Positions 1,749 to 14,582 of a stretch of DNA of 25,634 bases are shown one piece after another (positions within the stretch are counted from its first letter, which is position 1; every line of letters begins with the position of its first letter). Location: NCBI GenBank assembly GCA_013297745.1, contig JAAFIM010000007.1, positions 64,747 to 90,380 of the forward strand, written 5' to 3'. The position numbers and the translations under genes are program-made. The notes under the pieces were generated by a model. The model made no database searches, was not told where the DNA came from, and worked only from the letters and a program-made list of their open reading frames with translations. Origin of the DNA: Chitinophagales bacterium. Lineage in GTDB: Bacteria > Bacteroidota > Bacteroidia > Chitinophagales > Saprospiraceae.

Positions 1749-3443
1749 ATGGAAAAAATTTGGCTTAAAAGTTATCCCGATGCTGTGCCTGCTGAGATAG
1801 ATTTTGGCAATCGGCAGTCGCTTATCAACGAAATTGATGTATATTTGAAAAAATATGCCAATTTGCCCGCTTACGAGTGTATGGGTAAAACGTTGACTTA
1901 TAAAGAAGTAGATGAAAAATCTATGCACTTTGCCGCTTATTTGCAATCTCGCGGGCTAAAAACAGGCGACCGCGTGGCGATTATGTCCATCAACATTTTG
2001 CAATATCCTATCGCTCTGTTCGGTATTCTCCGCGCTGGGCTGATAGTGGTCAATACTAATCCATTATACACAGCCCGTGAGATTGAACACCAGTTCAAAG
2101 ATGCTGGAGTGAAAGCGGTTTTGGTGTTGGAAAATTTCGCTGCTGAGTTGGAAAAAGCGCTGCAACACTGCAAAGTGGATTTTGTGATGCTGACTTCTAT
2201 AGGCGAAATGTTGGGATTTCTAAAAGGTATGATAACCAATTTTGTCGTCCGCACGGTCAAAAAAATGGTTCCAGCCTACAAGTTATCCAACACGGTAACT
2301 TTTTCTCAAGCACTCGCTGCTGGTAGCAAATTAAAAGCCAAAGTTCACACCACAGGGCAATTAGATGATACGATTTGCATCCAATACACAGGCGGCACTA
2401 CAGGCGTAGCCAAAGGGGCAGAATTGACCAATCGCAATCTTATCGCCAATATGTTGCAGGTGTCGGCTTGGTTGGGTTCTTCTGGTATGATACAAATGGG
2501 AAAAGAGCGGATGCTAACCCCGTTGCCTATGTACCATATTTTCTCTTTCACGGTTAATTGTTTATGTATGGCGAGTTTTGGGGCTAAAAGTATCTTAGTG
2601 CCTAATCCCCGCGACCAAAAAGCCTTAGTGGGCTTTATCCGCAATTGCCAGCCAACGCTGATGACGGGCGTTAATACCTTGTTTAAAGCTTTGTTGGATA
2701 ATCCCGAATTTACCGCTTTGGATTTTAAATCTATGGGGCTGAAAATGGCTGTAGGTGGTGCTATGGCTATCCAAAAACCTGTAGCTGAACGTTGGAAACA
2801 GGTTGTGGGCATTCCCCTAACTGAAGGTTTTGGTATGACTGAATCTTCTCCTGTGGCTTGTGTCAATCGCTTGGATACGCCCCAAATTGGTACTATAGGT
2901 TTGCCTGTGCCTTCTACTTTGGTGCGGATTATGGATATTGATACAGACCAAGAAGTGCCTTTCGGAGAGCGGGGAGAAATCCAAATTTTTGGACCACAAG
3001 TGATGAAAGGTTATTACAACCGCCCCGATGAAACCGCCAAAACTATCACAGCAGACGGTTGGTTGCGCACGGGCGATATTGGTATAATGAACGAACAGGG
3101 CTTTACGAGCATCGTGGATAGGCTTAAAAATATGATTTTAGTTTCTGGGTTTAATGTTTATCCCAACGAAATTGAAGATGTTTTGGCGGCTCACCCCAAA
3201 ATAGCTGAAGCTGCTGCTATAGGCGTTCCCGACGAAAAATCGGGCGAGGCGATTAAAATTTTTGTGGTGAAAAAAGACCCCAGCCTAACCGAAGAAGAGG
3301 TCAAAGCTTTCGCAGCCGAACACCTCACAGGCTACAAAAAACCGCGCTACATAGAGTTTAGAACAGAAGTTCCCAAAACCCCAGTGGGCAAAATTCTACA
3401 CCGCCAGTTGAGAGACGAAGAGATGGCGAAAAGGAATAAATAA
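1749..3443 (+). CDS. fadD: long-chain fatty-acid--CoA ligase (AMP-binding adenylate-forming enzyme)
   Basis: AMP-binding signature YTGGTTGVAKGAELTNRN, downstream LRTGDIG and PKTPVGKILHRQL motifs. Length 564 aa is typical. Confidence 0.9.
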   Translation: MEKIWLKSYPDAVPAEIDFGNRQSLINEIDVYLKKYANLPAYECMGKTLTYKEVDEKSMHFAAYLQSRGLKTGDRVAIMSINILQYPIALFGILRAGLIVVNTNPLYTAREIEHQFKDAGVKAVLVLENFAAELEKALQHCKVDFVMLTSIGEMLGFLKGMITNFVVRTVKKMVPAYKLSNTVTFSQALAAGSKLKAKVHTTGQLDDTICIQYTGGTTGVAKGAELTNRNLIANMLQVSAWLGSSGMIQMGKERMLTPLPMYHIFSFTVNCLCMASFGAKSILVPNPRDQKALVGFIRNCQPTLMTGVNTLFKALLDNPEFTALDFKSMGLKMAVGGAMAIQKPVAERWKQVVGIPLTEGFGMTESSPVACVNRLDTPQIGTIGLPVPSTLVRIMDIDTDQEVPFGERGEIQIFGPQVMKGYYNRPDETAKTITADGWLRTGDIGIMNEQGFTSIVDRLKNMILVSGFNVYPNEIEDVLAAHPKIAEAAAIGVPDEKSGEAIKIFVVKKDPSLTEEEVKAFAAEHLTGYKKPRYIEFRTEVPKTPVGKILHRQLRDEEMAKRNK

Positions 3444-5784: not shown

Positions 5785-6918
5785 ATGGCCAACAATAATA
5801 AACCAAAACACAATTATATTTTTTACGGAACTCGCACCAACGCCTCCGAAGTGGAGAAAATGCTCGCGCACGTGTTCCAATCTAACGAAACTGCCATATC
5901 CAAAGGGCTAAAACAAACCCCCGTTTGTATTTGGGGGAGACACGGTATAGGAAAAACCGATTTGGTGGAGAAATTTGCTATCGAAAACGGTTATAAATGG
6001 GAATATATTGCCCCTGCTCAGTTTGAAGAAATGGGCGACTTGGTGGGTATGCCTCAAGTTACGAAAGATGAAGAGGGCAACACCATCACCCGCTTTATGC
6101 CCCCGTCTTGGGTGCCTACTGAAGAAGCGAAAGGGATTTTGTTGATAGACGACGTCAATCGCGCTGATGACCGCATCTTGCGCGGGATTATGCAATTGAT
6201 ACAAAATTATGAGCTGGTGAGTTGGTCTTTACCCAAAGGCTGGCAGATTATCCTGACCGCTAACCCCGACGGCGGCGACTATTCGGTTACGCCTATGGAC
6301 GATGCGATGCTGACCCGTATGATGCACGTAACGATGGAATTTGATGTCAAAGAGTGGGCAAAATGGGCTGAGCGCAAAAATATAGACCAACGCGGTATCA
6401 ACTTTGTGCTGACTTATCCCGAAGTGGTAACGGGCGACCGCACCACCCCGCGCACATTGACCCAATTTTTCAACGCCATCGCTTCTATCAAAGATTTGGA
6501 AAAAGAGTTGGGCTTGGTGCAATTATTGGGCGATTCTTGCTTGGACACTAGCACAGTTACGGCTTTTATCAACTTTGTGAATAGCAATTTGAACAAATTG
6601 ATTGCACCTGAAGAGATTGTAAACGCTAAAGATTTCAAAGCGCAGGTTTTTGAGCCGCTCAAAACGATGGCACAGCGCGGTTCTACCCTCCGAGTGGATA
6701 TTTTGGCTACACTTTGCACCCGTTTGGTCAATTATTTGGTGGTTAATAACATCAAACCGGATAAAGAGCAGATTCAAAACATCAAATCTTTTATCAAAAT
6801 AGACTTTTTACCCAACGATATTCGCTTGGCTATGGCTCAAGATATAGTTTCTAGTAGCAATCTAAAGTTAATTATGGCAGACCCAGAAATTGGCAAATTA
6901 TTGTTGAACAGAATGTAA
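5785..6918 (+). CDS. AAA+ ATPase, AAA_5/MoxR-like subfamily
   Basis: Walker A GRHGIGKTDL. Walker B plus downstream region ILLIDDVNRADDRILRGIMQLIQNYEL resembles the MoxR/CbbQ pattern (LLxDEINRA...). Sensor-like QIILTANP. The ~180-aa C-terminal extension was not recognised. Confidence 0.6.
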   Translation: MANNNKPKHNYIFYGTRTNASEVEKMLAHVFQSNETAISKGLKQTPVCIWGRHGIGKTDLVEKFAIENGYKWEYIAPAQFEEMGDLVGMPQVTKDEEGNTITRFMPPSWVPTEEAKGILLIDDVNRADDRILRGIMQLIQNYELVSWSLPKGWQIILTANPDGGDYSVTPMDDAMLTRMMHVTMEFDVKEWAKWAERKNIDQRGINFVLTYPEVVTGDRTTPRTLTQFFNAIASIKDLEKELGLVQLLGDSCLDTSTVTAFINFVNSNLNKLIAPEEIVNAKDFKAQVFEPLKTMAQRGSTLRVDILATLCTRLVNYLVVNNIKPDKEQIQNIKSFIKIDFLPNDIRLAMAQDIVSSSNLKLIMADPEIGKLLLNRM

Positions 6919-6977
6919 ATATGGTAAAAAAAAGCCCTGTAGTTGTTTTCTTATAATTTCTAAACTTTTTTTGTTCT

Positions 6978-7748
6978 ATGCATTTAACCCATTTTGTAAA
7001 ATTAACTGCTTTAAGTTTGTTAATTGTTGCCTGTCAATCTAAAAACAACAACAATAATCCTAATCCCAGCAGCAATTCCAACGTTTCGACCGCGCCCGCG
7101 CCTACAGTAGCTGCTGCCGCCATTACGTTTAAAACGCAAAAATTTACCGCCAAAAAGAAAGAAAATACAGCAGATTACGAAGTTGATTTGGTGAATGAAA
7201 GCCACGAGTTGGGCAAATTTATCAACCAAACCATTTGCAAAACCCTCAGCGCGGATAAAATGAATTGCGATTATCAAAAATTAGCCAACGAGTACGTAAA
7301 AGGCGATAACGAGGGGTTTAGAATGGAAACTATGCAAACGGCTAAAATTGCTTTCGCGGGCAAACGGATAATTAGCATAGCCACTACTTGGTGGGAATAC
7401 GCGGGCGGCGCGCACGGGATGGGTTCAGGCGGACATATTAATATAGACGGGGTTAATCTCAAAGTTTTGGGGATAAAAGATATGGTTAAAGATATGGAGG
7501 GGCTGAAAAAATTAATCTATCCCGAACTGAAAAAAGCATACACGGCAGAAATTGGGGGCGAGTTGGATATGCCAATAAACGATGTGGGCGAATTTGACGA
7601 TATTAGCCTCGATAAAACTTCAGTTTCTTTCAATTATAGCAGTTTGGCGCAACTTCTTGGGGGCGGAAATATGGATATACAGCAAGATTTGTGGGTAAGT
7701 TTGCCCATAGCCACAGCGCAGCCATTTTTTAACCTGCCTTTGGAATAG
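6978..7748 (+). CDS. lipoprotein, probable DUF3298/DUF4163 (RsiV-like) domain protein
   Basis: Lipoprotein signal with lipobox LIVAC. Low-complexity N/S/A linker. The WWEYAGGAHGMGSGG motif resembles the conserved GGAHG of DUF3298. Confidence 0.5.
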   Translation: MHLTHFVKLTALSLLIVACQSKNNNNNPNPSSNSNVSTAPAPTVAAAAITFKTQKFTAKKKENTADYEVDLVNESHELGKFINQTICKTLSADKMNCDYQKLANEYVKGDNEGFRMETMQTAKIAFAGKRIISIATTWWEYAGGAHGMGSGGHINIDGVNLKVLGIKDMVKDMEGLKKLIYPELKKAYTAEIGGELDMPINDVGEFDDISLDKTSVSFNYSSLAQLLGGGNMDIQQDLWVSLPIATAQPFFNLPLE

Positions 7749-7881: not shown

Positions 7882-9204
7882 ATGAAAATAACTAAAATTC
7901 ATCTGCAAAACATAGGCGTTTTTGAAGATACGACTATAGAATTTCCCAGCCACCACGAGGGCGAAAATGGTACGGATATTCATATTTTTACGGGCGAAAA
8001 TGGTAGCGGGAAAAGTACGCTATTGTTGGCGTTGATAAGTAGTTTTTTGCCAAATCACTTATCCTTTAACAATAGTCAACCGCCTAATAATACAACTTTA
8101 TATTTTTTGCAGCAAAGATTAAGGGTAAGTGGTGATAAAATAATAAATAAGATAAAAACTACTTTTAGTGTTGATGATAGAGAAGAGTTGAATAGTTTTG
8201 AAGGACAGTCAAACTCTAAAACTTTTATTAATAATAACGACTTGCCAAAACTTAAGTTGTACCACAAAATAAACAGTGGGTCTAGTATTCTAGATGAAAA
8301 TTTAATGTATGCGGTCTTTATTTACTCTGGACATAGAGCGATAATTGATTATAATTTTAATCCAAATATTGAGCTACATCCATTACACAACGGCACCAAT
8401 CTAATCAAACAAACTACTGCTAAACAATTCTTTAAGTTTGTAAAAGAGCAGATAGTAAAATCGCTTTGGGCAGAAAGAAAGGGAGATGTGCAGCGCGTAG
8501 AGAGTGTAAATTTGGCACTTAACGCAGTAAAGGAATTTATAAAAGAGGTTACTAATTTAAGTGTAGAGTTTGAATTGGATGCGGATGATACGGAAAAGGT
8601 ATTGCTGTTGGTGTCTGGGCAAGTAGTAAATTACGATGCTTTGCCTGACGGGTTGCGCTCGTTGATGAGTTGGATAGCTGACTTATTATGGCGTTTGGAT
8701 AGGTGCAAGTGGGAAAATAATACGCCATTATTGGAGCGTAGAGTGTTATTGTTTTTGGATGAAATAGAAGTGCATTTACACCCAAGTTGGCAGCGTAAAG
8801 TATTGCCTGCGGTGAAAAAATTGTTTAAAAATGCTCAAGTGTTTATCTCTACGCACTCGCCTTTTGTGGTTAATTCTATAGATGGGGCTTTTGTGCATAG
8901 GATAGAATTGGAGGGAAAAAATGCCAAAGTCTTGCCCGCTGTGCAGTCGAATAATGCTACCAATATACAAACTGTGTTGAGGGAAATTTTTGGCGTTTCT
9001 GAAGAGTTTGGATTAGAAGTTAGCGAAAAGCTTAACAAATTTATTCAGATTAAAAACGACATTTTCGCTAAAAAAGAGTATGATAAACCTTATTTTTTGG
9101 AATTAGCCAAATCTTTAATAAAAGAAGGCGAAGAATTAGAGTTAATCGTTGCGTTTGAATTGCGACAATTGAGTAAAGTGCTTAAAGAAGATTTTGCGCT
9201 ATGA
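7882..9204 (+). CDS. ptuA: ABC/SMC-like ATPase (AAA_15/AAA_21 type), Septu PtuA-like
   Basis: N-terminal IHLQNIGVF...IFTGENGSGKSTLLLAL (Walker A). C-terminal LLFLDEIEVHLHP (Walker B/D-loop) and ISTHSPFVV (H-loop). Stop overlaps the start of the HNH gene (ATGA). Confidence 0.6.
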   Translation: MKITKIHLQNIGVFEDTTIEFPSHHEGENGTDIHIFTGENGSGKSTLLLALISSFLPNHLSFNNSQPPNNTTLYFLQQRLRVSGDKIINKIKTTFSVDDREELNSFEGQSNSKTFINNNDLPKLKLYHKINSGSSILDENLMYAVFIYSGHRAIIDYNFNPNIELHPLHNGTNLIKQTTAKQFFKFVKEQIVKSLWAERKGDVQRVESVNLALNAVKEFIKEVTNLSVEFELDADDTEKVLLLVSGQVVNYDALPDGLRSLMSWIADLLWRLDRCKWENNTPLLERRVLLFLDEIEVHLHPSWQRKVLPAVKKLFKNAQVFISTHSPFVVNSIDGAFVHRIELEGKNAKVLPAVQSNNATNIQTVLREIFGVSEEFGLEVSEKLNKFIQIKNDIFAKKEYDKPYFLELAKSLIKEGEELELIVAFELRQLSKVLKEDFAL

Positions 9205-9800
9205 AAAAACAAATTAGACCAGCACAACCACAATGGTTAGCCGATAATTATAAAAAATGGGCTACAGCTTGGGCAAAATTACAAAAGAAAGGGGGGACTT
9301 TTCAGTGGGCTTGGCATCCTATTCACAAAGTTGAACGAGTGAATAAAGAAATCACTAAAATACTTTTAGATGGAATGACTCAAGGGCATTGCTCATTTTG
9401 CGATGCTTTCCCGATAGAAACAACAGGCGTAACGTTGGAACATTTTAAGCCTAAAAGCAAATATCCTTTGTTGGCTTATACGTGGAATAATTTATATCCT
9501 TGTTGTAACAAATGCCAAGAGAAAGGAGATTTTTACAGTTGGTTATTAATAAATCCCGATAATCCAAGATACGATTTTTGGGATTATTTTATTTATGAAG
9601 CATCAAGCGGGATGATTTTAGTAAATGAAGCTGAAGATAAATCTCATTTAGACCGTGCGCGTGCTTTTGCAACGATTAAAATTTACGGGTTGAATGACCA
9701 CAGCCGCCCAGAAATGCGAAAAAGAATTTACAAGCAACTACTAAAAGCTGACCCTGCGGATTATAAGGACTACGCGTATCGGTTTCTAATGGATTTCTAA
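9201..9800 (+). CDS. ptuB: HNH endonuclease, Septu PtuB-like
   Basis: HNH signature HCSFCDAF...TLEHFKPKS...WNNLYPCCNKCQEKG (C..C, EH..P, N, CC.KC). Length ~199 aa. Translationally coupled to the upstream ATPase. Confidence 0.6.
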   Translation: MKKQIRPAQPQWLADNYKKWATAWAKLQKKGGTFQWAWHPIHKVERVNKEITKILLDGMTQGHCSFCDAFPIETTGVTLEHFKPKSKYPLLAYTWNNLYPCCNKCQEKGDFYSWLLINPDNPRYDFWDYFIYEASSGMILVNEAEDKSHLDRARAFATIKIYGLNDHSRPEMRKRIYKQLLKADPADYKDYAYRFLMDF

Positions 9801-9872: not shown

Positions 9873-10520
9873 TTATTTGTTGCCAAAAAAATAATAGAAA
9901 CCGGTTTGAAAACCAGCGTTTAGGAGATTAAGCCGTAAATCGTGATAATAAACACTTCTATTAGGATTATAATCTATACTGTAATTTAATAAAGACAGTT
10001 GAAAATCTAAAGCAAATTTATCAGAAAAACGATACATAAGACCAGCATTTACGCCTAGATTTACATTTCCAAAGTTATTTTTAAATGTGCCTCCTGGAAT
10101 GGTAGTTCCTGAATTTATTTGTATGCTTCGGGTGTAACCGCCGCCAATTTGAAATTGGGAATAAGCAAAAAGTTTATTTTCAGACAAATTAAACCAACGC
10201 CGCAAACCATAACTGGTCGTATAATTGTGGCTTTGACGATTTACCTTCCCAAAACCAACACTTTGAGGGGGGAGACCATTTGTAAATATATTTTGCGAAT
10301 AACCATAGCCTAAACTAAAGTGATGAGACCAACGCGAATTTTGCCAATAGGAAAAAGTAGGCGATAGCGAACTGCTAAACTCATAACCAGCATTAAAACC
10401 ATTTGGATTAGTTGCTCTTAAAAATAAATTGCCGCCCAAAGCCTTAGTTTTTGGTTCAAATTGGGCTTGAGAAGTGAGCGCGAAGCTCATAAAAATGAAG
10501 AAAATGAATAAACGTTTCAT
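9873..10520 (-). CDS. outer-membrane beta-barrel protein (small OmpA-like/OmpW-like barrel), paralog 1
   Basis: Signal peptide MKRLFIFFIFMSFALTSQAQ. Alternating hydrophobic/aromatic beta-strand pattern. C-terminal YYFFGNK with terminal aromatic. Paralogous to 10579..11226. Confidence 0.55.
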   Translation of the reverse strand: MKRLFIFFIFMSFALTSQAQFEPKTKALGGNLFLRATNPNGFNAGYEFSSSLSPTFSYWQNSRWSHHFSLGYGYSQNIFTNGLPPQSVGFGKVNRQSHNYTTSYGLRRWFNLSENKLFAYSQFQIGGGYTRSIQINSGTTIPGGTFKNNFGNVNLGVNAGLMYRFSDKFALDFQLSLLNYSIDYNPNRSVYYHDLRLNLLNAGFQTGFYYFFGNK

Positions 10521-10578: not shown

Positions 10579-11226
10579 TTATTTGTTGCCCAAAAAATAA
10601 TAGAGACCTACTTGAAAACCAGCGTTTAGGGGTTTAGATTGAAAACCGTGATAATAAATACCAGTAGCACTGCTATGATTTATACTATAATTTAATAAAG
10701 ATGCTTGGACATCTAAAGCAAATTTATTGGAAAATCTATACATAAGACCAGCATTTGCGCCTATATTCACACTCCTAAAATTAGGGCTAAAAGTACCTCT
10801 TGGTCTCATATTTCCTGAATTTACTTGTGAGCTTTGGCTATAACCGCCGCCAATTTGAAATTGAGGATAAGCAAAAAGTTTGTTTTTATACAAATTGAAC
10901 CAACGCCGCAAACCATAACTGGTCAGATAATTGTGAGATTGATAACTCATTTTAGCAAAATTAGGACTTTGAGTACTTGCACCGTTGCTAACCACACCTT
11001 GCGAATAGCCATAACCTAAACTAAAATGGTGAGACCAACGCGAGTTTTGCCAGTGCGAAAAAGTGGGCGAAATAGAACCGCTAAAATTGTAACCCAAATA
11101 ATCTCTATTAGGGTTGTTTACGTTTAAAAAAAAATTGCCGCCCAAAGCTTTAGTTTTTGGTTCAAATTGGGCTTGCAAGGTGAGCGCGAAGCTCAAAAAA
11201 ATCAATAGAATGGGTAAAAGTTTCAT
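10579..11226 (-). CDS. outer-membrane beta-barrel protein, paralog 2 (start taken at MKLLPIL, ATG 11226; the ORF-track extension to 11292 is unlikely)
   Basis: Signal peptide MKLLPILLIFLSFALTLQAQ followed by FEPKTKALGGN, almost identical to paralog 1. C-terminal YYFLGNK. Confidence 0.55.
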   Translation of the reverse strand: MKLLPILLIFLSFALTLQAQFEPKTKALGGNFFLNVNNPNRDYLGYNFSGSISPTFSHWQNSRWSHHFSLGYGYSQGVVSNGASTQSPNFAKMSYQSHNYLTSYGLRRWFNLYKNKLFAYPQFQIGGGYSQSSQVNSGNMRPRGTFSPNFRSVNIGANAGLMYRFSNKFALDVQASLLNYSINHSSATGIYYHGFQSKPLNAGFQVGLYYFLGNK

Positions 11227-11264
11227 ATTTTTACAAAAAAATTTTAATAAAAAAATAATAGGTA

Positions 11265-11306
11265 TAAAAAAAACCGTCTTGTTTGCTAACAAAACGGTTT
11301 TGTATT
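11265..11306. terminator. rho-independent terminator downstream of sodA (minus strand), bidirectional architecture
   Basis: Hairpin AACCGTCTTG-tttgctaa-CAAAACGGTT (one mismatch) flanked by A-run and T-run. Confidence 0.55.
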
Positions 11307-11350: not shown

Positions 11351-11965
11351 CTACTTGTTGGCAGCGAATAATTCGGCTACTTTAGCCCAATTAGCTACAC
11401 TGAAGAAAGCGTTGATATAATCAGCGCGGCGGTTTTGATAGTTGAGGTAATAAGCGTGTTCCCATACATCAATACCGAAAATGGGGAAGCCGCCACAGCC
11501 TTTGCTATCTACATCCATAAGCGGATTGTCTTGATTGGGGGTAGAACAAACCTCTACTTTGCCCCCTTTATGCACACACAACCAAGCCCAACCAGAACCG
11601 AAACGGGTCATAGCAGCAGCAGCAAATTTTTCTTTGAACGCTGCAAAACCACCCAAATCGCGGTTGATAGCTTCTGCCAATTCACCTGTGGGTTCGCCGC
11701 CACCATTGGGAGACATTACTTCCCAAAATAGGTTGTGGTTGTAGAAACCGCCCCCATTGTTGCGCACTGCTGGGCTGGCTTTGGAGATATTCGCTAAAAT
11801 TTGTTCGATGGTTTGATTTTCCAACTCTGTGCCTGCTATGGCTTTATTCAAGTTGTCGGTATAAGCGGCGTGGTGTTTGCTGTGGTGAATTTCCATAGTG
11901 CGCGCATCAATATGGGGCTGTAGTGCGTCGTAAGCGTACGCCAATTTGGGAAGTACAAATGCCAT
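11351..11965 (-). CDS. sodA: Fe/Mn superoxide dismutase
   Basis: [28 protein letters not shown], metal ligands, and [19 protein letters not shown] signature. Confidence 0.93.
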
Positions 11966-12071: not shown

Positions 12072-12947
12072 TTATTCTAAAACTACATCTATTTTTTCCC
12101 GCGTAAAGCCTACCGTTGCTAAAGTATTGGCTAATAAAGCCCAAAAATCGGCTAATTCGTAAGGGAAATTTTCAATTTGGTATAAATCGCTGTAGGTATC
12201 GTTTCCATACAAATAACTATTATTGCGCCAATACATCCAACTCTTTTCAATATCTTCGTTAATAAACAAACGGTTAAAATTATATTCAAAAAACAACTCA
12301 AGCCAATCATTGTGAAGGTCAGAAGCTTTTGTTTCTGCTATTAGGTAATTTAGGGTTTCGGTGACTAATTTTTCATCTTTTGCGCCCACTTTATGGAGTA
12401 GCAAGTATAAATCTACAGAGTCTTTTATACGCGGTTGGGTTATGGATTGGTGTATTTTCCAAGATAATTGAATGGGCAAAGGGGCAGCTTTGGGGATGAT
12501 AAATTTAGCACCTTGCGCGGGTTGGTATTCTATAGTTACGGGTTCAAAAGGCACAGGCCAATTAAAGCTAATTTCTATATTTAAGGAAATTTTTTCATCC
12601 CCGATAAAGGCCTTAATTTCCGTATTGACGGTGGCAAAATGGTTATACATTGCATAATCGGAATTTTCCCAATAGATATTGTCGCTATCCAATCGCTTAA
12701 ATCGTACGCCATCTTTCAAGTCGCTGTGGCAAACAGTCATCAGCCAGATGTTGAAAATTTTTTCCGCGTCTTCCATATCCCCAAAGGTTTGGCTGCAATA
12801 CCAATCCAAATCGGCTGGTAGGCGGTTGGCAGGATTAGCACAAAATTGGCGGGTTAAAAAGCTGCCTTTGAGTACAAAAGGGCTGTTGAAACTAGCAGCG
12901 CGGGCGATAAAACCCTCATAAGCGCGCATTTCTAATTCAGAAATCAT
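12072..12947 (-). CDS. AbiEii/DUF1814-like nucleotidyltransferase (pol-beta superfamily), paralog A
   Basis: NTase motif FVLKGSFLTRQF...LPADLDWY (hG[GS]...DhD). C-terminal R-x-KDxVDLxLLL motif resembling the conserved KDLYDL of DUF1814. ~290 aa, typical size. Confidence 0.45.
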   Translation of the reverse strand: MISELEMRAYEGFIARAASFNSPFVLKGSFLTRQFCANPANRLPADLDWYCSQTFGDMEDAEKIFNIWLMTVCHSDLKDGVRFKRLDSDNIYWENSDYAMYNHFATVNTEIKAFIGDEKISLNIEISFNWPVPFEPVTIEYQPAQGAKFIIPKAAPLPIQLSWKIHQSITQPRIKDSVDLYLLLHKVGAKDEKLVTETLNYLIAETKASDLHNDWLELFFEYNFNRLFINEDIEKSWMYWRNNSYLYGNDTYSDLYQIENFPYELADFWALLANTLATVGFTREKIDVVLE

Positions 12948-13034
12948 AGTTATTTGGTAAAGTTTGAGAATTATAAAAAATGGTTTAGAGTGTTGCTAAT
13001 AACGGGCAGAATTAGCGCAGTTTTTTTATTTTAA

Positions 13035-13913
13035 TCAATCCCAATCGTCATAATTTGGTCTTGGGTCAAAACCCGCTTTTTCAAAAATTGTGGTTAAGTA
13101 TTCGTAAAAATCATCTAATTTTTCTGGAACTTGATAGCTGCCATAAAAATCTGAATAGGTGTTTGTATCCCAAAAATGCTTAAAATCATAATATTTCTCC
13201 TTGTTATCCATACGCCAATACTCCCAACGGCTCTCTGATATGACTTCGTCCTCGTCAAAGTTATATTCAAAAAACTCATCTGCAAATACGCCACTCATTA
13301 TAGCTTCTTCCTCGGCTGTTTCTTTTATTAGCGCAATCATTTCATTATCAATACTTTGATGTTGCAATAATAAAGATAAATCCACAAAATCTTTCATACG
13401 CGGTTCTATGATACACTGGTGAATTTTCCAAGCGATTTGTAAGTATAAAGGTATGGTTTTGGATAGATTAAACTGCTCGTTATTGCTATTTTTGTACAAA
13501 ATTGGTTTTGGGGTAAAATGTATTGGCCAATTATAACTAATTTCAATATAAAATCGAATAGTTTGACCTTTTACAGTAGCTTCTAATACAGTACCAATAG
13601 TGGTAAATTCTTGATAATCAGCATAATCGGTATTTTCCCAATTAATGTTGCCTGCTACTAGCGGATTAAATTCTACCCCGTCGTTTAGTTTGGTATTGAC
13701 TACAGTCATTAGCCAAATGTTAAAAAAAATCATAGCATTATCCACCATACTTAGTTTTTGCAAACAATACCAATCCAAATCTGCTGGGATTCGGTCGCTT
13801 AAGCTGGGGCAAAATTGGCGGGTCAAAAAGCTACCTTTCAATACAAAAGGGCTATCAAAGGTTGCAGCGCGCTGGATAAATGATTCGCAAGCGAGTAAAG
13901 CTAAATTATTCAT
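13035..13913 (-). CDS. AbiEii/DUF1814-like nucleotidyltransferase, paralog B
   Basis: Same motifs as paralog A (FVLKGSFLTRQF, PADLDWY, PRMKDFVDLSLLL). Collinear similarity across the full length. Confidence 0.45.
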   Translation of the reverse strand: MNNLALLACESFIQRAATFDSPFVLKGSFLTRQFCPSLSDRIPADLDWYCLQKLSMVDNAMIFFNIWLMTVVNTKLNDGVEFNPLVAGNINWENTDYADYQEFTTIGTVLEATVKGQTIRFYIEISYNWPIHFTPKPILYKNSNNEQFNLSKTIPLYLQIAWKIHQCIIEPRMKDFVDLSLLLQHQSIDNEMIALIKETAEEEAIMSGVFADEFFEYNFDEDEVISESRWEYWRMDNKEKYYDFKHFWDTNTYSDFYGSYQVPEKLDDFYEYLTTIFEKAGFDPRPNYDDWD

Positions 13914-13937
13914 TTTTTATCAATAAATTATTCATTT

Positions 13938-14540
13938 TTATGGAATAAGCCAACCATTATCCAAATCTACGTTGCTGTCGTACAAACAAAATTCTGCTTG
14001 TTCTTTGCCAATTATCCAAGTATTTTGGGTTAATTCTGCTTTTAAGTTTGCAACTCGCTGCTCAAAATCGGCTCGATTGCCATAATGGCGCAGGGTGATA
14101 AATCGCTGACTTTCGTTGTTTTTTAGACTGTTTTTGGATAAGTGGGTTTGGTGTTCTTGGCAGATTTGGGTTAATAATTCCACCTGTTTATACTCAATTT
14201 TAGCGTGCCATTCAAAATAGTTTTTGCTGTTATTCAACTCATTTTCAAACAGATGCGCGCAGTAGGCGGGAATTTCTATCTTTATCCGATTAGGGTTAAA
14301 GTTGAGCTGTTTTAACTCCAAAGCTAATAAGTTGGCTTTATCTATAACCGTTTCCAACCCATTTTCGTAAAAAACTTTGGTCAGCATCGGCTGTTGTTGA
14401 TGTGCGCCCCGCGCCAAGTGGATAAGAATGGCTTTGCTTTGCAGGTTTTGGCAAATGGTGGCAAATTCCGTTTCGCGCTCGTTGTGGATAGCATCGACGG
14501 TCAAATGCAGTTCGAAGGGTAAATTTTCTATGTTTTTCAT
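13938..14540 (-). CDS. hypothetical protein (~200 aa from ATG 14540; the ORF-track start at 14609 runs into a terminator hairpin). First gene of an apparent three-gene unit with the two NTase paralogs.
   Basis: ORF track. Same strand, 25-nt gap to paralog B. No recognisable HTH or other motif. Confidence 0.4.
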   Translation of the reverse strand: MKNIENLPFELHLTVDAIHNERETEFATICQNLQSKAILIHLARGAHQQQPMLTKVFYENGLETVIDKANLLALELKQLNFNPNRIKIEIPAYCAHLFENELNNSKNYFEWHAKIEYKQVELLTQICQEHQTHLSKNSLKNNESQRFITLRHYGNRADFEQRVANLKAELTQNTWIIGKEQAEFCLYDSNVDLDNGWLIP

Positions 14541-14582
14541 AACGCTATTATACGATTTTTGCACAAAGATAGTTCCTTTTAT

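Follow-up and report, generated by a model that had tools for sequence, protein, structure and literature searches.

We analyzed a 25,634-nucleotide stretch of genomic DNA from a Chitinophagales bacterium (contig JAAFIM010000007.1, positions 64,747 to 90,380; hereafter, the window), in which a predicted three-gene operon on the minus strand (12072-14540) joins two tandem AbiEii-type nucleotidyltransferases (NTases) to an upstream protein that we designate X. Gene X (13938-14540, minus strand), the first of the operon, encodes a partner protein of 200 amino acids (aa); the next gene encodes NT-A (13035-13913, minus strand), a 292-aa NTase of the DUF1814/AbiEii family, and the last encodes NT-B (12072-12947, minus strand), its 291-aa paralog. 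All three are co-oriented, with gaps of 24 nt between X and NT-A and of 87 nt between NT-A and NT-B, and they are the same three open reading frames (ORFs) that an earlier, sequence-only reading of this DNA had delineated. An alternative X ORF from TTG extends to 14609; because this ORF runs into the upstream terminator and the homologs of X begin at ATG, the ATG start was taken.

NT-A and NT-B are collinear and 43% identical over 291 aa (E = 2e-77), and both carry the stretches VLKGSFLTRQF...R(L/I)PADLDWY and PR(I/M)KD(S/F)VDL(Y/S)LLL, as expected from the sequence-only reading, which had described two ~290-aa collinear paralogs sharing an NTase-like and a C-terminal motif. Its assignment of both proteins to DUF1814 is also borne out: the Pfam AbiEii model (PF08843) scored 29.8 bits with NT-B and 24.0 bits with NT-A, both above the gathering score of 22.5, and the PADLOC AbiEii model PDLC02308 was matched end to end (4.5e-72 for NT-B and 7.8e-62 for NT-A). 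The four DUF1814 motifs, namely hG[GS] (I), R-x3-D-h-D (II), a lysine (III), and +DxxD (IV), were defined by Dy et al. 2014 (PMC3985639). They are intact in both paralogs and, in NT-B, comprise Lys27-Gly28-Ser29 (I), Arg42-Leu-Pro44-Ala-Asp46-Leu-Asp48 (II), Lys164 (III), and Lys175-Asp176-x-x-Asp179 (IV). In a family alignment of 39 NTases from homologous loci, Gly28, Ser29, Arg42, Asp46, Asp48, Lys175, Asp176, and Asp179 (NT-B numbering) are invariant in 39/39 sequences, and the motif III lysine, Lys164, is kept in at least 90% of them. Further, NT-A and NT-B match solved AbiEii and MenT structures, with the AbiEii chain 9hlo_B being the best sequence match of the NTase family profile in the PDB (E = 2.5e-9). 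Because PF08843 is matched above its cut-off and motifs I-IV are kept, NT-A and NT-B can be regarded, from their sequences, as true AbiEii/MenT-family members that are apparently catalytically competent. Members of this family have been shown to block translation and to extend tRNA 3′ ends with additional nucleotides (PMC7450476, PMC10435456, bioRxiv 10.64898/2026.01.19.700257). The earlier description of AbiEii as a GTP-specific NTase has been superseded, as AbiEii is now reported to be a pyrimidine-specific tRNA 3′-end NTase that is neutralized by antitoxin-induced auto-phosphorylation at Thr65 (bioRxiv 10.64898/2026.01.19.700257).

MenT1 and MenT3 are neutralized in the same way as AbiEii, and the acceptor is in each case a Ser or Thr beside motif II, namely Thr65 in AbiEii, Thr39 in MenT1, and Ser78 in MenT3. 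In a hidden Markov model (HMM) alignment, Arg63-Ser-Thr65-Val-Asp67-Ile-Asp69 of AbiEii lies opposite Arg42-Leu-Pro44-Ala-Asp46-Leu-Asp48 of NT-B, and the Thr65 position is a proline in NT-A, in NT-B, and in most of the 39 aligned NTases, with the exceptions including a Thr (L020) and a Ser (L045). Since a proline occupies the equivalent site, auto-phosphorylation there is excluded, and NT-A and NT-B lack the Ser/Thr acceptor that characterizes type VII AbiE/MenAT toxins.

X takes the position of AbiEi, lying directly 5′ of an NTase and co-oriented with it across the 24-nt gap, but it is not AbiEi and is not homologous to AbiEi. Neither X nor any of the 78 family members scanned matched Pfam or NCBIfam, and none of the 78 matched a Pfam helix-turn-helix (HTH) or AbiEi_* model at E-values of up to 1. 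Searches of the PDB with X alone, as well as with the X family profile, gave no significant match, although the PDB includes AbiEi (6Y8Q) and the partner chain of 9hlo_B. Two PADLOC models named 'AbiEi' do match X (PDLC02279 at 4e-66 and PDLC02277 at 5e-42); however, no other library or structure ties X to AbiEi, and the name therefore cannot count as evidence of homology. An automated defense annotator would probably call the locus AbiE, and by naming X 'AbiEi' such annotators conceal that X is unrelated to AbiEi. The AlphaFold model of X (mean predicted local distance difference test score of 92; predicted template-modeling score of 0.87) opens with a β strand, is α+β throughout without an HTH, and comprises two β-α-β-β-α-β (ferredoxin-like) units. 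This description in two units is structural only, since an internal sequence duplication was rejected when hhalign compared the N-terminal and C-terminal halves of X (4.8% probability). With this model, Foldseek returned chlorite-dismutase-like and tandem-ACT proteins at template-modeling scores (TM-scores) of ~0.3, and AbiEi, Rv2827c, and 2H phosphoesterases were absent from both lists of structural matches; no homology to the C-terminal neutralizing domain of AbiEi/Rv2827c was found. A 2H phosphoesterase, which would carry two H-x-T/S motifs on a LigT-like bilobed fold, was also considered for X, and this fold was tested and not found. These results uphold two earlier statements, (i) that the 200-aa protein carries no recognizable HTH and (ii) that no canonical AbiEi lies upstream of the NTases. 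Being without a DNA-binding domain, X cannot auto-repress in the manner of AbiEi.

A profile search with X across 1.84 billion cluster representatives recovered 1,790 relatives at E-values of up to 0.001 (1,149 at up to 1e-10), which makes X a family of ~1,800 clusters at 50% identity without Pfam, NCBIfam, or structural annotation. In a comparison that took in phages, eukaryote collections, and bacteria from five or more phyla, the invariant residues are Glu10, His12, Thr14, Met52, Arg85, Lys87, Glu89, Tyr108, Phe109, Glu110, His112, Leu123, Asn137, Thr149, Arg151, Glu183, Asp188, Asn190, Asp194, and Trp197. They alternate along β strands, in the patterns E-x-H-x-T, R-x-K-x-E, Y-x-E-x-H, and T-x-R, an arrangement that suggests a shared location on one face of the sheets. 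The constellation resembles an active site, or else a pocket for a phosphate-rich ligand, and not a surface fitted to one protein partner. Because this polar constellation is invariant even in phage and eukaryote-collection homologs without an NTase partner, we infer for X either an enzymatic activity or tight binding of nucleotides or RNA ends.

The partnership between X and this NTase clade is near-obligate. Among the 48 genome loci recovered with X as the seed, a same-clade AbiEii NTase lies directly downstream of, or is fused to, X in 39, and a divergent AbiEii NTase of 410-444 aa lies downstream in three more; of the remaining six, three are cut by contig ends and three carry X alone. Thus, in 42/45 informative loci (from Bacteroidota, Acidobacteriota, Burkholderiales, Planctomycetota, and Deinococcales), an AbiEii NTase comes after X or is part of the same polypeptide, with the X stop and NTase start codons often overlapping or lying within ~20 bp of each other. 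More distant X genes of other phyla show the same NTase pairing, again with overlapping stop and start codons. Seeding from the NTase recovered 80 metagenome loci, in which X is a separate upstream gene in 66 and part of an X-NTase fusion in nine (75/77), leaving three that have no room for an upstream gene and two with an unrelated upstream protein. The association is asymmetric, in that the NTase almost never occurs without X, whereas X can be solo. The features generally expected of toxin-antitoxin pairs, namely a toxin that is rarely solo, an antitoxin that can be, partner swap, and variable context, are all found here. The swap concerns two loci of identical sequence (L139 and L140) with an NTase of the same clade, where an unrelated 280-aa protein (2099-2941, plus strand) occupies the overlapping upstream slot in place of X; this is a rare partner swap. 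A 759-aa triple fusion (P0158; L036, 7209-9488, plus strand) joins an S-adenosylmethionine-dependent methyltransferase domain, X, and an AbiEii NTase. No conserved neighbors were found between homologous loci, and since the flanking genes are not conserved, the X-NTase pair can be viewed as a self-contained module that moves between contexts, in keeping with the accessory character ascribed to the unit before.

Tandem NTases were found at only two of ~130 loci, namely the window and its closest relative, a metagenome contig (L049) with the same argC-argD-X-NTase-NTase order, where the NTases lie at 5823-7706. Between the two, ArgC (97%), ArgD (93%), and X (93%) are closely similar, whereas the NTases are 45-77% identical and mosaic: a comparison of NT-B with the first L049 NTase gives 90-100% identity in the first 120 residues and 93% in the last alignment window, against only 36-56% for residues 150-270. 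This pattern fits recombination after duplication together with diversification of the C-terminal helical region, and the divergence of these NTases suggests that recombination or diversifying selection may have acted on them.

X also occurs without an AbiEii NTase. Its homologs are encoded in 13 phage genomes, which include those of Aeromonas phages LAh_6, LAh_8, LAh_9, and 4_4572 and of the jumbo phages Xoo-sp13, XacN1, CM1, RAS14, and RP13, and in 13 IMG/VR viral contigs. No NTase lies within 4 kb of any of these genes (for example, L055 4980-5606, L056 4710-5615, and L057 4989-5618, as well as those of L058-L070), and a scan of the viral contigs by a single peptide pattern found no NTase relatives. 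Most of the viral proteins combine an N-terminal MazG-like domain of ~100 residues, which matches PDB entries 5ie9 (E = 0.0012) and 2gta (E = 0.0066) and phrog_1247 (1.3e-79), with a C-terminal X. By sequence, then, the C-terminal ~200 residues of many members of phrog_1247, annotated as 'MazG-like pyrophosphatase', are assigned as an X domain; viral proteins that consist of X only make up phrog_25995, which the X of the window matches at 1.9e-5. The parts of a jumbo-phage survey available to us (PMC7824862) do not show the X domain, and we found nothing relevant to X in the literature on AbiEii, MazG, and Ham1. Near the viral genes we also noted tRNA-Leu and tRNA-Arg genes ~2-3 kb from X in Ralstonia phage RP13 (L057 1769-3016 and 5001-5618) and a 403-aa AAA/STAND-like ATPase two genes after X in Aeromonas phage LAh_9 (L055 5812-7023). 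In eukaryote collections (EukProt, MMETSP, and a Physarum transcript), X is fused to Ham1/ITPase (P0250, P0219, P0269, P0212, and P0305), and in the rotifer Didymodactylos carnosus (P0317) an NTP_transf_2 domain, which belongs to a different Pol-beta NTase family, is joined to an X-homologous region; contamination is possible in both cases. Moreover, in Deinococcales (four loci, including one on a plasmid of Deinococcus sp. QL22), a gene for an RNA ligase (PF09414; 'RNA ligase family protein' in PGAP) always stands between or beside X and the NTase (L046 8582-9268, L047 282-986, L048 8515-9366, and L151 3110-3856). Because all of its non-AbiEii partners split nucleoside triphosphates (NTPs) between the α and β phosphates, this set of associations points to a function of X in nucleotide or RNA-end chemistry.

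Around the operon, the two terminators noted by the sequence-only reading were both recovered on the minus strand as hairpins with T runs, one with a 12-bp stem (14617-14589), which closes the upstream argD unit and forms the 5′ boundary of the module, and one with a 14-bp stem (11301-11270), although the total of terminator-like sites across the region is not above shuffle expectation. That reading had placed the unit between the arg genes and sodA, bounded by these terminators; the hairpins stand, but the second lies 3′ of sodA (11351-11965), so that sodA falls within the terminator-bounded interval. The interval from NT-B to sodA contains no predicted terminator, and since the first one beyond NT-B is this hairpin (11270-11301), transcription could continue from the module into sodA. 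Candidate promoter elements on the minus strand, just upstream of the X ATG (14547-14571), consist of TATCTTTG at 14571-14564 and TATAAT at 14552-14547; both are pattern matches only, and we take TATCTTTG to fit the Bacteroidota-type -7 box TAnnTTTG, a putative promoter element. A tRNA gene as the integration site of the module was rejected, as the window contains no tRNA genes. On the other side of sodA, 2.3 kb from the NTase module, lies a complete Septu system (7882-9800, plus strand), comprising the PtuA ATPase (7882-9204; PADLOC PDLC00281 at 2e-116) and the PtuB HNH nuclease (9201-9800; PDLC00351 at 2e-48), whose genes overlap by 4 nt. Between Septu and sodA are two tandem paralogous genes (9873-10520 and 10579-11292, minus strand), whose products of ~215-237 aa resemble, as judged by eye, beta-barrel outer-membrane proteins (QFEPKTKALGGN...GFYYF) and begin with signal-peptide-like N-termini.

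We favor, with a probability of about one half, a reading of this locus as a toxin-antitoxin or abortive-infection module of a non-canonical, AbiE/MenAT-like kind, in which the neutralizer is a non-homologous protein. By homology to MenT1, MenT3, MenT4, and AbiEii, NT-A and NT-B would most likely extend RNA by added nucleotides, with tRNA 3′ ends as the probable target, and would halt translation if unchecked. The co-transcribed upstream X would be the most likely neutralizer, and it could counter the NTases chemically, by reversing or pre-empting the modification (as in the logic of DarG), or could occlude their active site. Toxicity, the tRNA target, antagonism by X, and any catalysis by X are all points that we infer. 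Since X has no DNA-binding domain and the NTases have no phosphoacceptor, neutralization must follow another mechanism than that of AbiEi and MenA1/3, and the residue pattern of X suggests that its mode may be enzymatic or nucleotide-dependent. The toxin-antitoxin reading rests on (i) the homology of the NTases to proven toxins and the tight coupling of the upstream X to them; (ii) the near absence of the NTase without X, the occurrence of solo X, and the partner swap at L139/L140; (iii) the resemblance of phage-borne solo X to counter-defense and the presence of Septu 2.3 kb away in the window; and (iv) the mosaic, fast-diverging NTases of the window and L049, set against an X, ArgC, and ArgD that stay at 93-97%.

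Several observations weigh against this reading. The 131 proteins flanking 44 loci are not enriched in integrases, transposases, or PADLOC families; with no conserved neighbors, no such enrichment, and Septu near the window locus only, a defense-island or mobile-element context over the homologous loci was rejected. The fold of X yields no functional match and no close solved relative in Foldseek. X is not more conserved than the NTase family-wide (median identity of 44% for X and 49% for the NTase); the contrast between them is therefore local to the window lineage, and the argument that X is the more conserved partner, which holds for the window versus L049 only, was dropped as a general one. 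Further, cooperation would explain the covalent X-NTase fusions, in which both parts are intact, no less well than antagonism would, and the same is true of the RNA ligase linkage at the four Deinococcales loci. Lastly, the fusions that join X to two kinds of NTP pyrophosphatase with unrelated folds (MazG-like and Ham1) and to a different Pol-beta NTase family show that it also functions independently of AbiEii-type toxins.

The main rival, which we consider unlikely but take seriously, is that X and the NTase form a cooperative RNA-end repair or maintenance pair, in which X acts as the healing factor for damaged 3′ ends of RNA or tRNA, for instance as a metal-independent phosphoesterase that uses its two invariant histidines, and the NTase re-extends these ends; the Deinococcales RNA ligase would then seal the break, and the phage MazG-X proteins would repair tRNAs damaged by nucleases of the host. 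The ligase genes beside X and the NTase in L046, L047, L048, and L151 agree with such a pathway, as do the retention of both conserved residue sets in the X-NTase fusions, the tRNA genes in the X region of phage RP13, flanks that are not defense islands, and the precedent of RNA-ligase-associated Pol-beta NTases (RlaP; PMC12776372). However, the ligase link is limited to one lineage, the loci share no conserved kinase or other partner for end healing, the test for a 2H phosphoesterase fold was negative, and all characterized DUF1814 NTases are growth-inhibiting toxins; the dependence of the NTase on X but not of X on the NTase, together with the rare partner swap, is also more typical of toxin-antitoxin pairs. 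That same asymmetry is the opposite of what would be expected if the roles were reversed as in HEPN/MNT (HepT/MntA) systems, with X as the harmful component (for example, a metal-independent RNase) and the NTases as antitoxins that nucleotidylate it, because X is solo in phages, eukaryote collections, and some bacteria, and the NTase almost never is. While the Pol-beta NTase MntA does neutralize HepT by AMPylation (PMC7641770), and the invariant His, Tyr, and Thr of X could be catalytic or acceptor sites, the X-first gene order is the usual antitoxin position and the DUF1814 members characterized so far are toxins, so that we hold reversed roles to be highly improbable.

X might instead be an ACT-like sensor of a small molecule (a nucleotide) that gates the AbiEii NTase, the MazG-like or Ham1 pyrophosphatase, or the other Pol-beta NTase, and would then be neither an enzyme nor a classical antitoxin. 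CapRel, a fused toxin-sensor protein, provides a precedent, tandem ACT regulatory subunits are among the Foldseek matches, and X behaves as a constant module joined, at either terminus, to several unrelated catalytic domains. We regard such a sensor as rather improbable, since the ~20 invariant charged and polar residues on its β strands (two E-x-H and R-x-K-x-E) are more like an active site than an ACT pocket, the TM-scores to ACT proteins are only ~0.3, and stand-alone X occurs in phages and some bacteria without an adjacent effector. A canonical AbiE system, with X as a divergent AbiEi (COG5340), is essentially excluded: in its favor are the two PADLOC 'AbiEi' matches and the upstream position of X, to which are opposed the 0/78 family members matching Pfam AbiEi_* or HTH models, the lack of NCBIfam and PDB matches, with 6Y8Q and the 9hlo_B partner chain among the entries searched, and the fusion of X homologs to pyrophosphatases in phages and eukaryote collections. 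The sequence-only reading had allowed for either a divergent AbiE-like module or a different NTase-based system. Because X is widespread, enzyme-like, and also present without an NTase, the latter option and an enzymatic antitoxin are now both serious. X as a widespread enzyme-like domain outside NTase contexts had not been foreseen.

A more far-reaching proposal, which we put forward tentatively and consider doubtful on present evidence, is that X represents a new family of enzymes, built on a scaffold of tandem ferredoxin-like units and bearing the two E-x-H and the R-x-K-x-E motifs, that reverses the chemistry of Pol-beta-fold NTase toxins. X would then act on nucleotidylated RNA ends or on nucleotides, for example by trimming the added nucleotides from tRNA 3′ ends, and an attached NTP pyrophosphatase might pull the reaction forward; bacteria would use X as an enzymatic antitoxin, the phage MazG-X would serve as broad-spectrum counter-defense, and eukaryotes would have acquired ITPase-X. 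The real question posed by the locus is the function of X, whose family is large, unannotated, and enzyme-like and probably performs new biochemistry. DUF1814 toxins (AbiEii and MenT) are a widespread means of translation shutdown, for which the current models of control are COG5340-type antitoxins and induced auto-phosphorylation, and this clade has neither. If X undoes or pre-empts nucleotidylation enzymatically, it would be (i) a second example of a modification-reversing antitoxin, after the logic of DarG, and (ii) a candidate phage anti-defense activity, and it would (iii) explain what the C-terminal half of many phage 'MazG-like' proteins does.

Compared with known systems, the locus resembles AbiE of Streptococcus agalactiae and Lactococcus lactis in its downstream DUF1814 (PF08843) NTase with motifs I-IV and in its compact operon with the partner gene first, but differs from it in that X lacks both a winged HTH and the COG5340 C-terminal domain, Thr65 is replaced by a proline, the NTase is duplicated, and the X family also occurs outside NTase contexts. 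From the MenAT systems of Mycobacterium tuberculosis (MenT1, MenT3/TglT, and MenT4) it is set apart by an X that resembles no MenA and by the absence of the Ser/Thr acceptor of MenT1 and MenT3. The likeness to DarTG is one of logic only, in that an antitoxin with a conserved, catalytic-looking site could undo the toxin chemistry and in that DarG-type domains also occur outside toxin-antitoxin contexts; X has no sequence or fold relation to the DarG macrodomain, and the chemistry of DarTG is the ADP-ribosylation of DNA. With RNA repair cassettes (RlaP-ligase and Pnkp/Hen1), the Deinococcales loci share the adjacency of X, an RNA ligase (PF09414), and an NTase, and NTase-plus-ligase is a known theme; here, however, the NTase is AbiEii-type and not RlaP (PF10127), there is no kinase or phosphatase partner, and neither the window nor most lineages have the ligase. 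Finally, the phage MazG-like pyrophosphatases of phrog_1247, many of which end in the X domain, share that domain with the window X, which for its part has no MazG-like domain and, unlike the phage proteins, is encoded beside an NTase partner.

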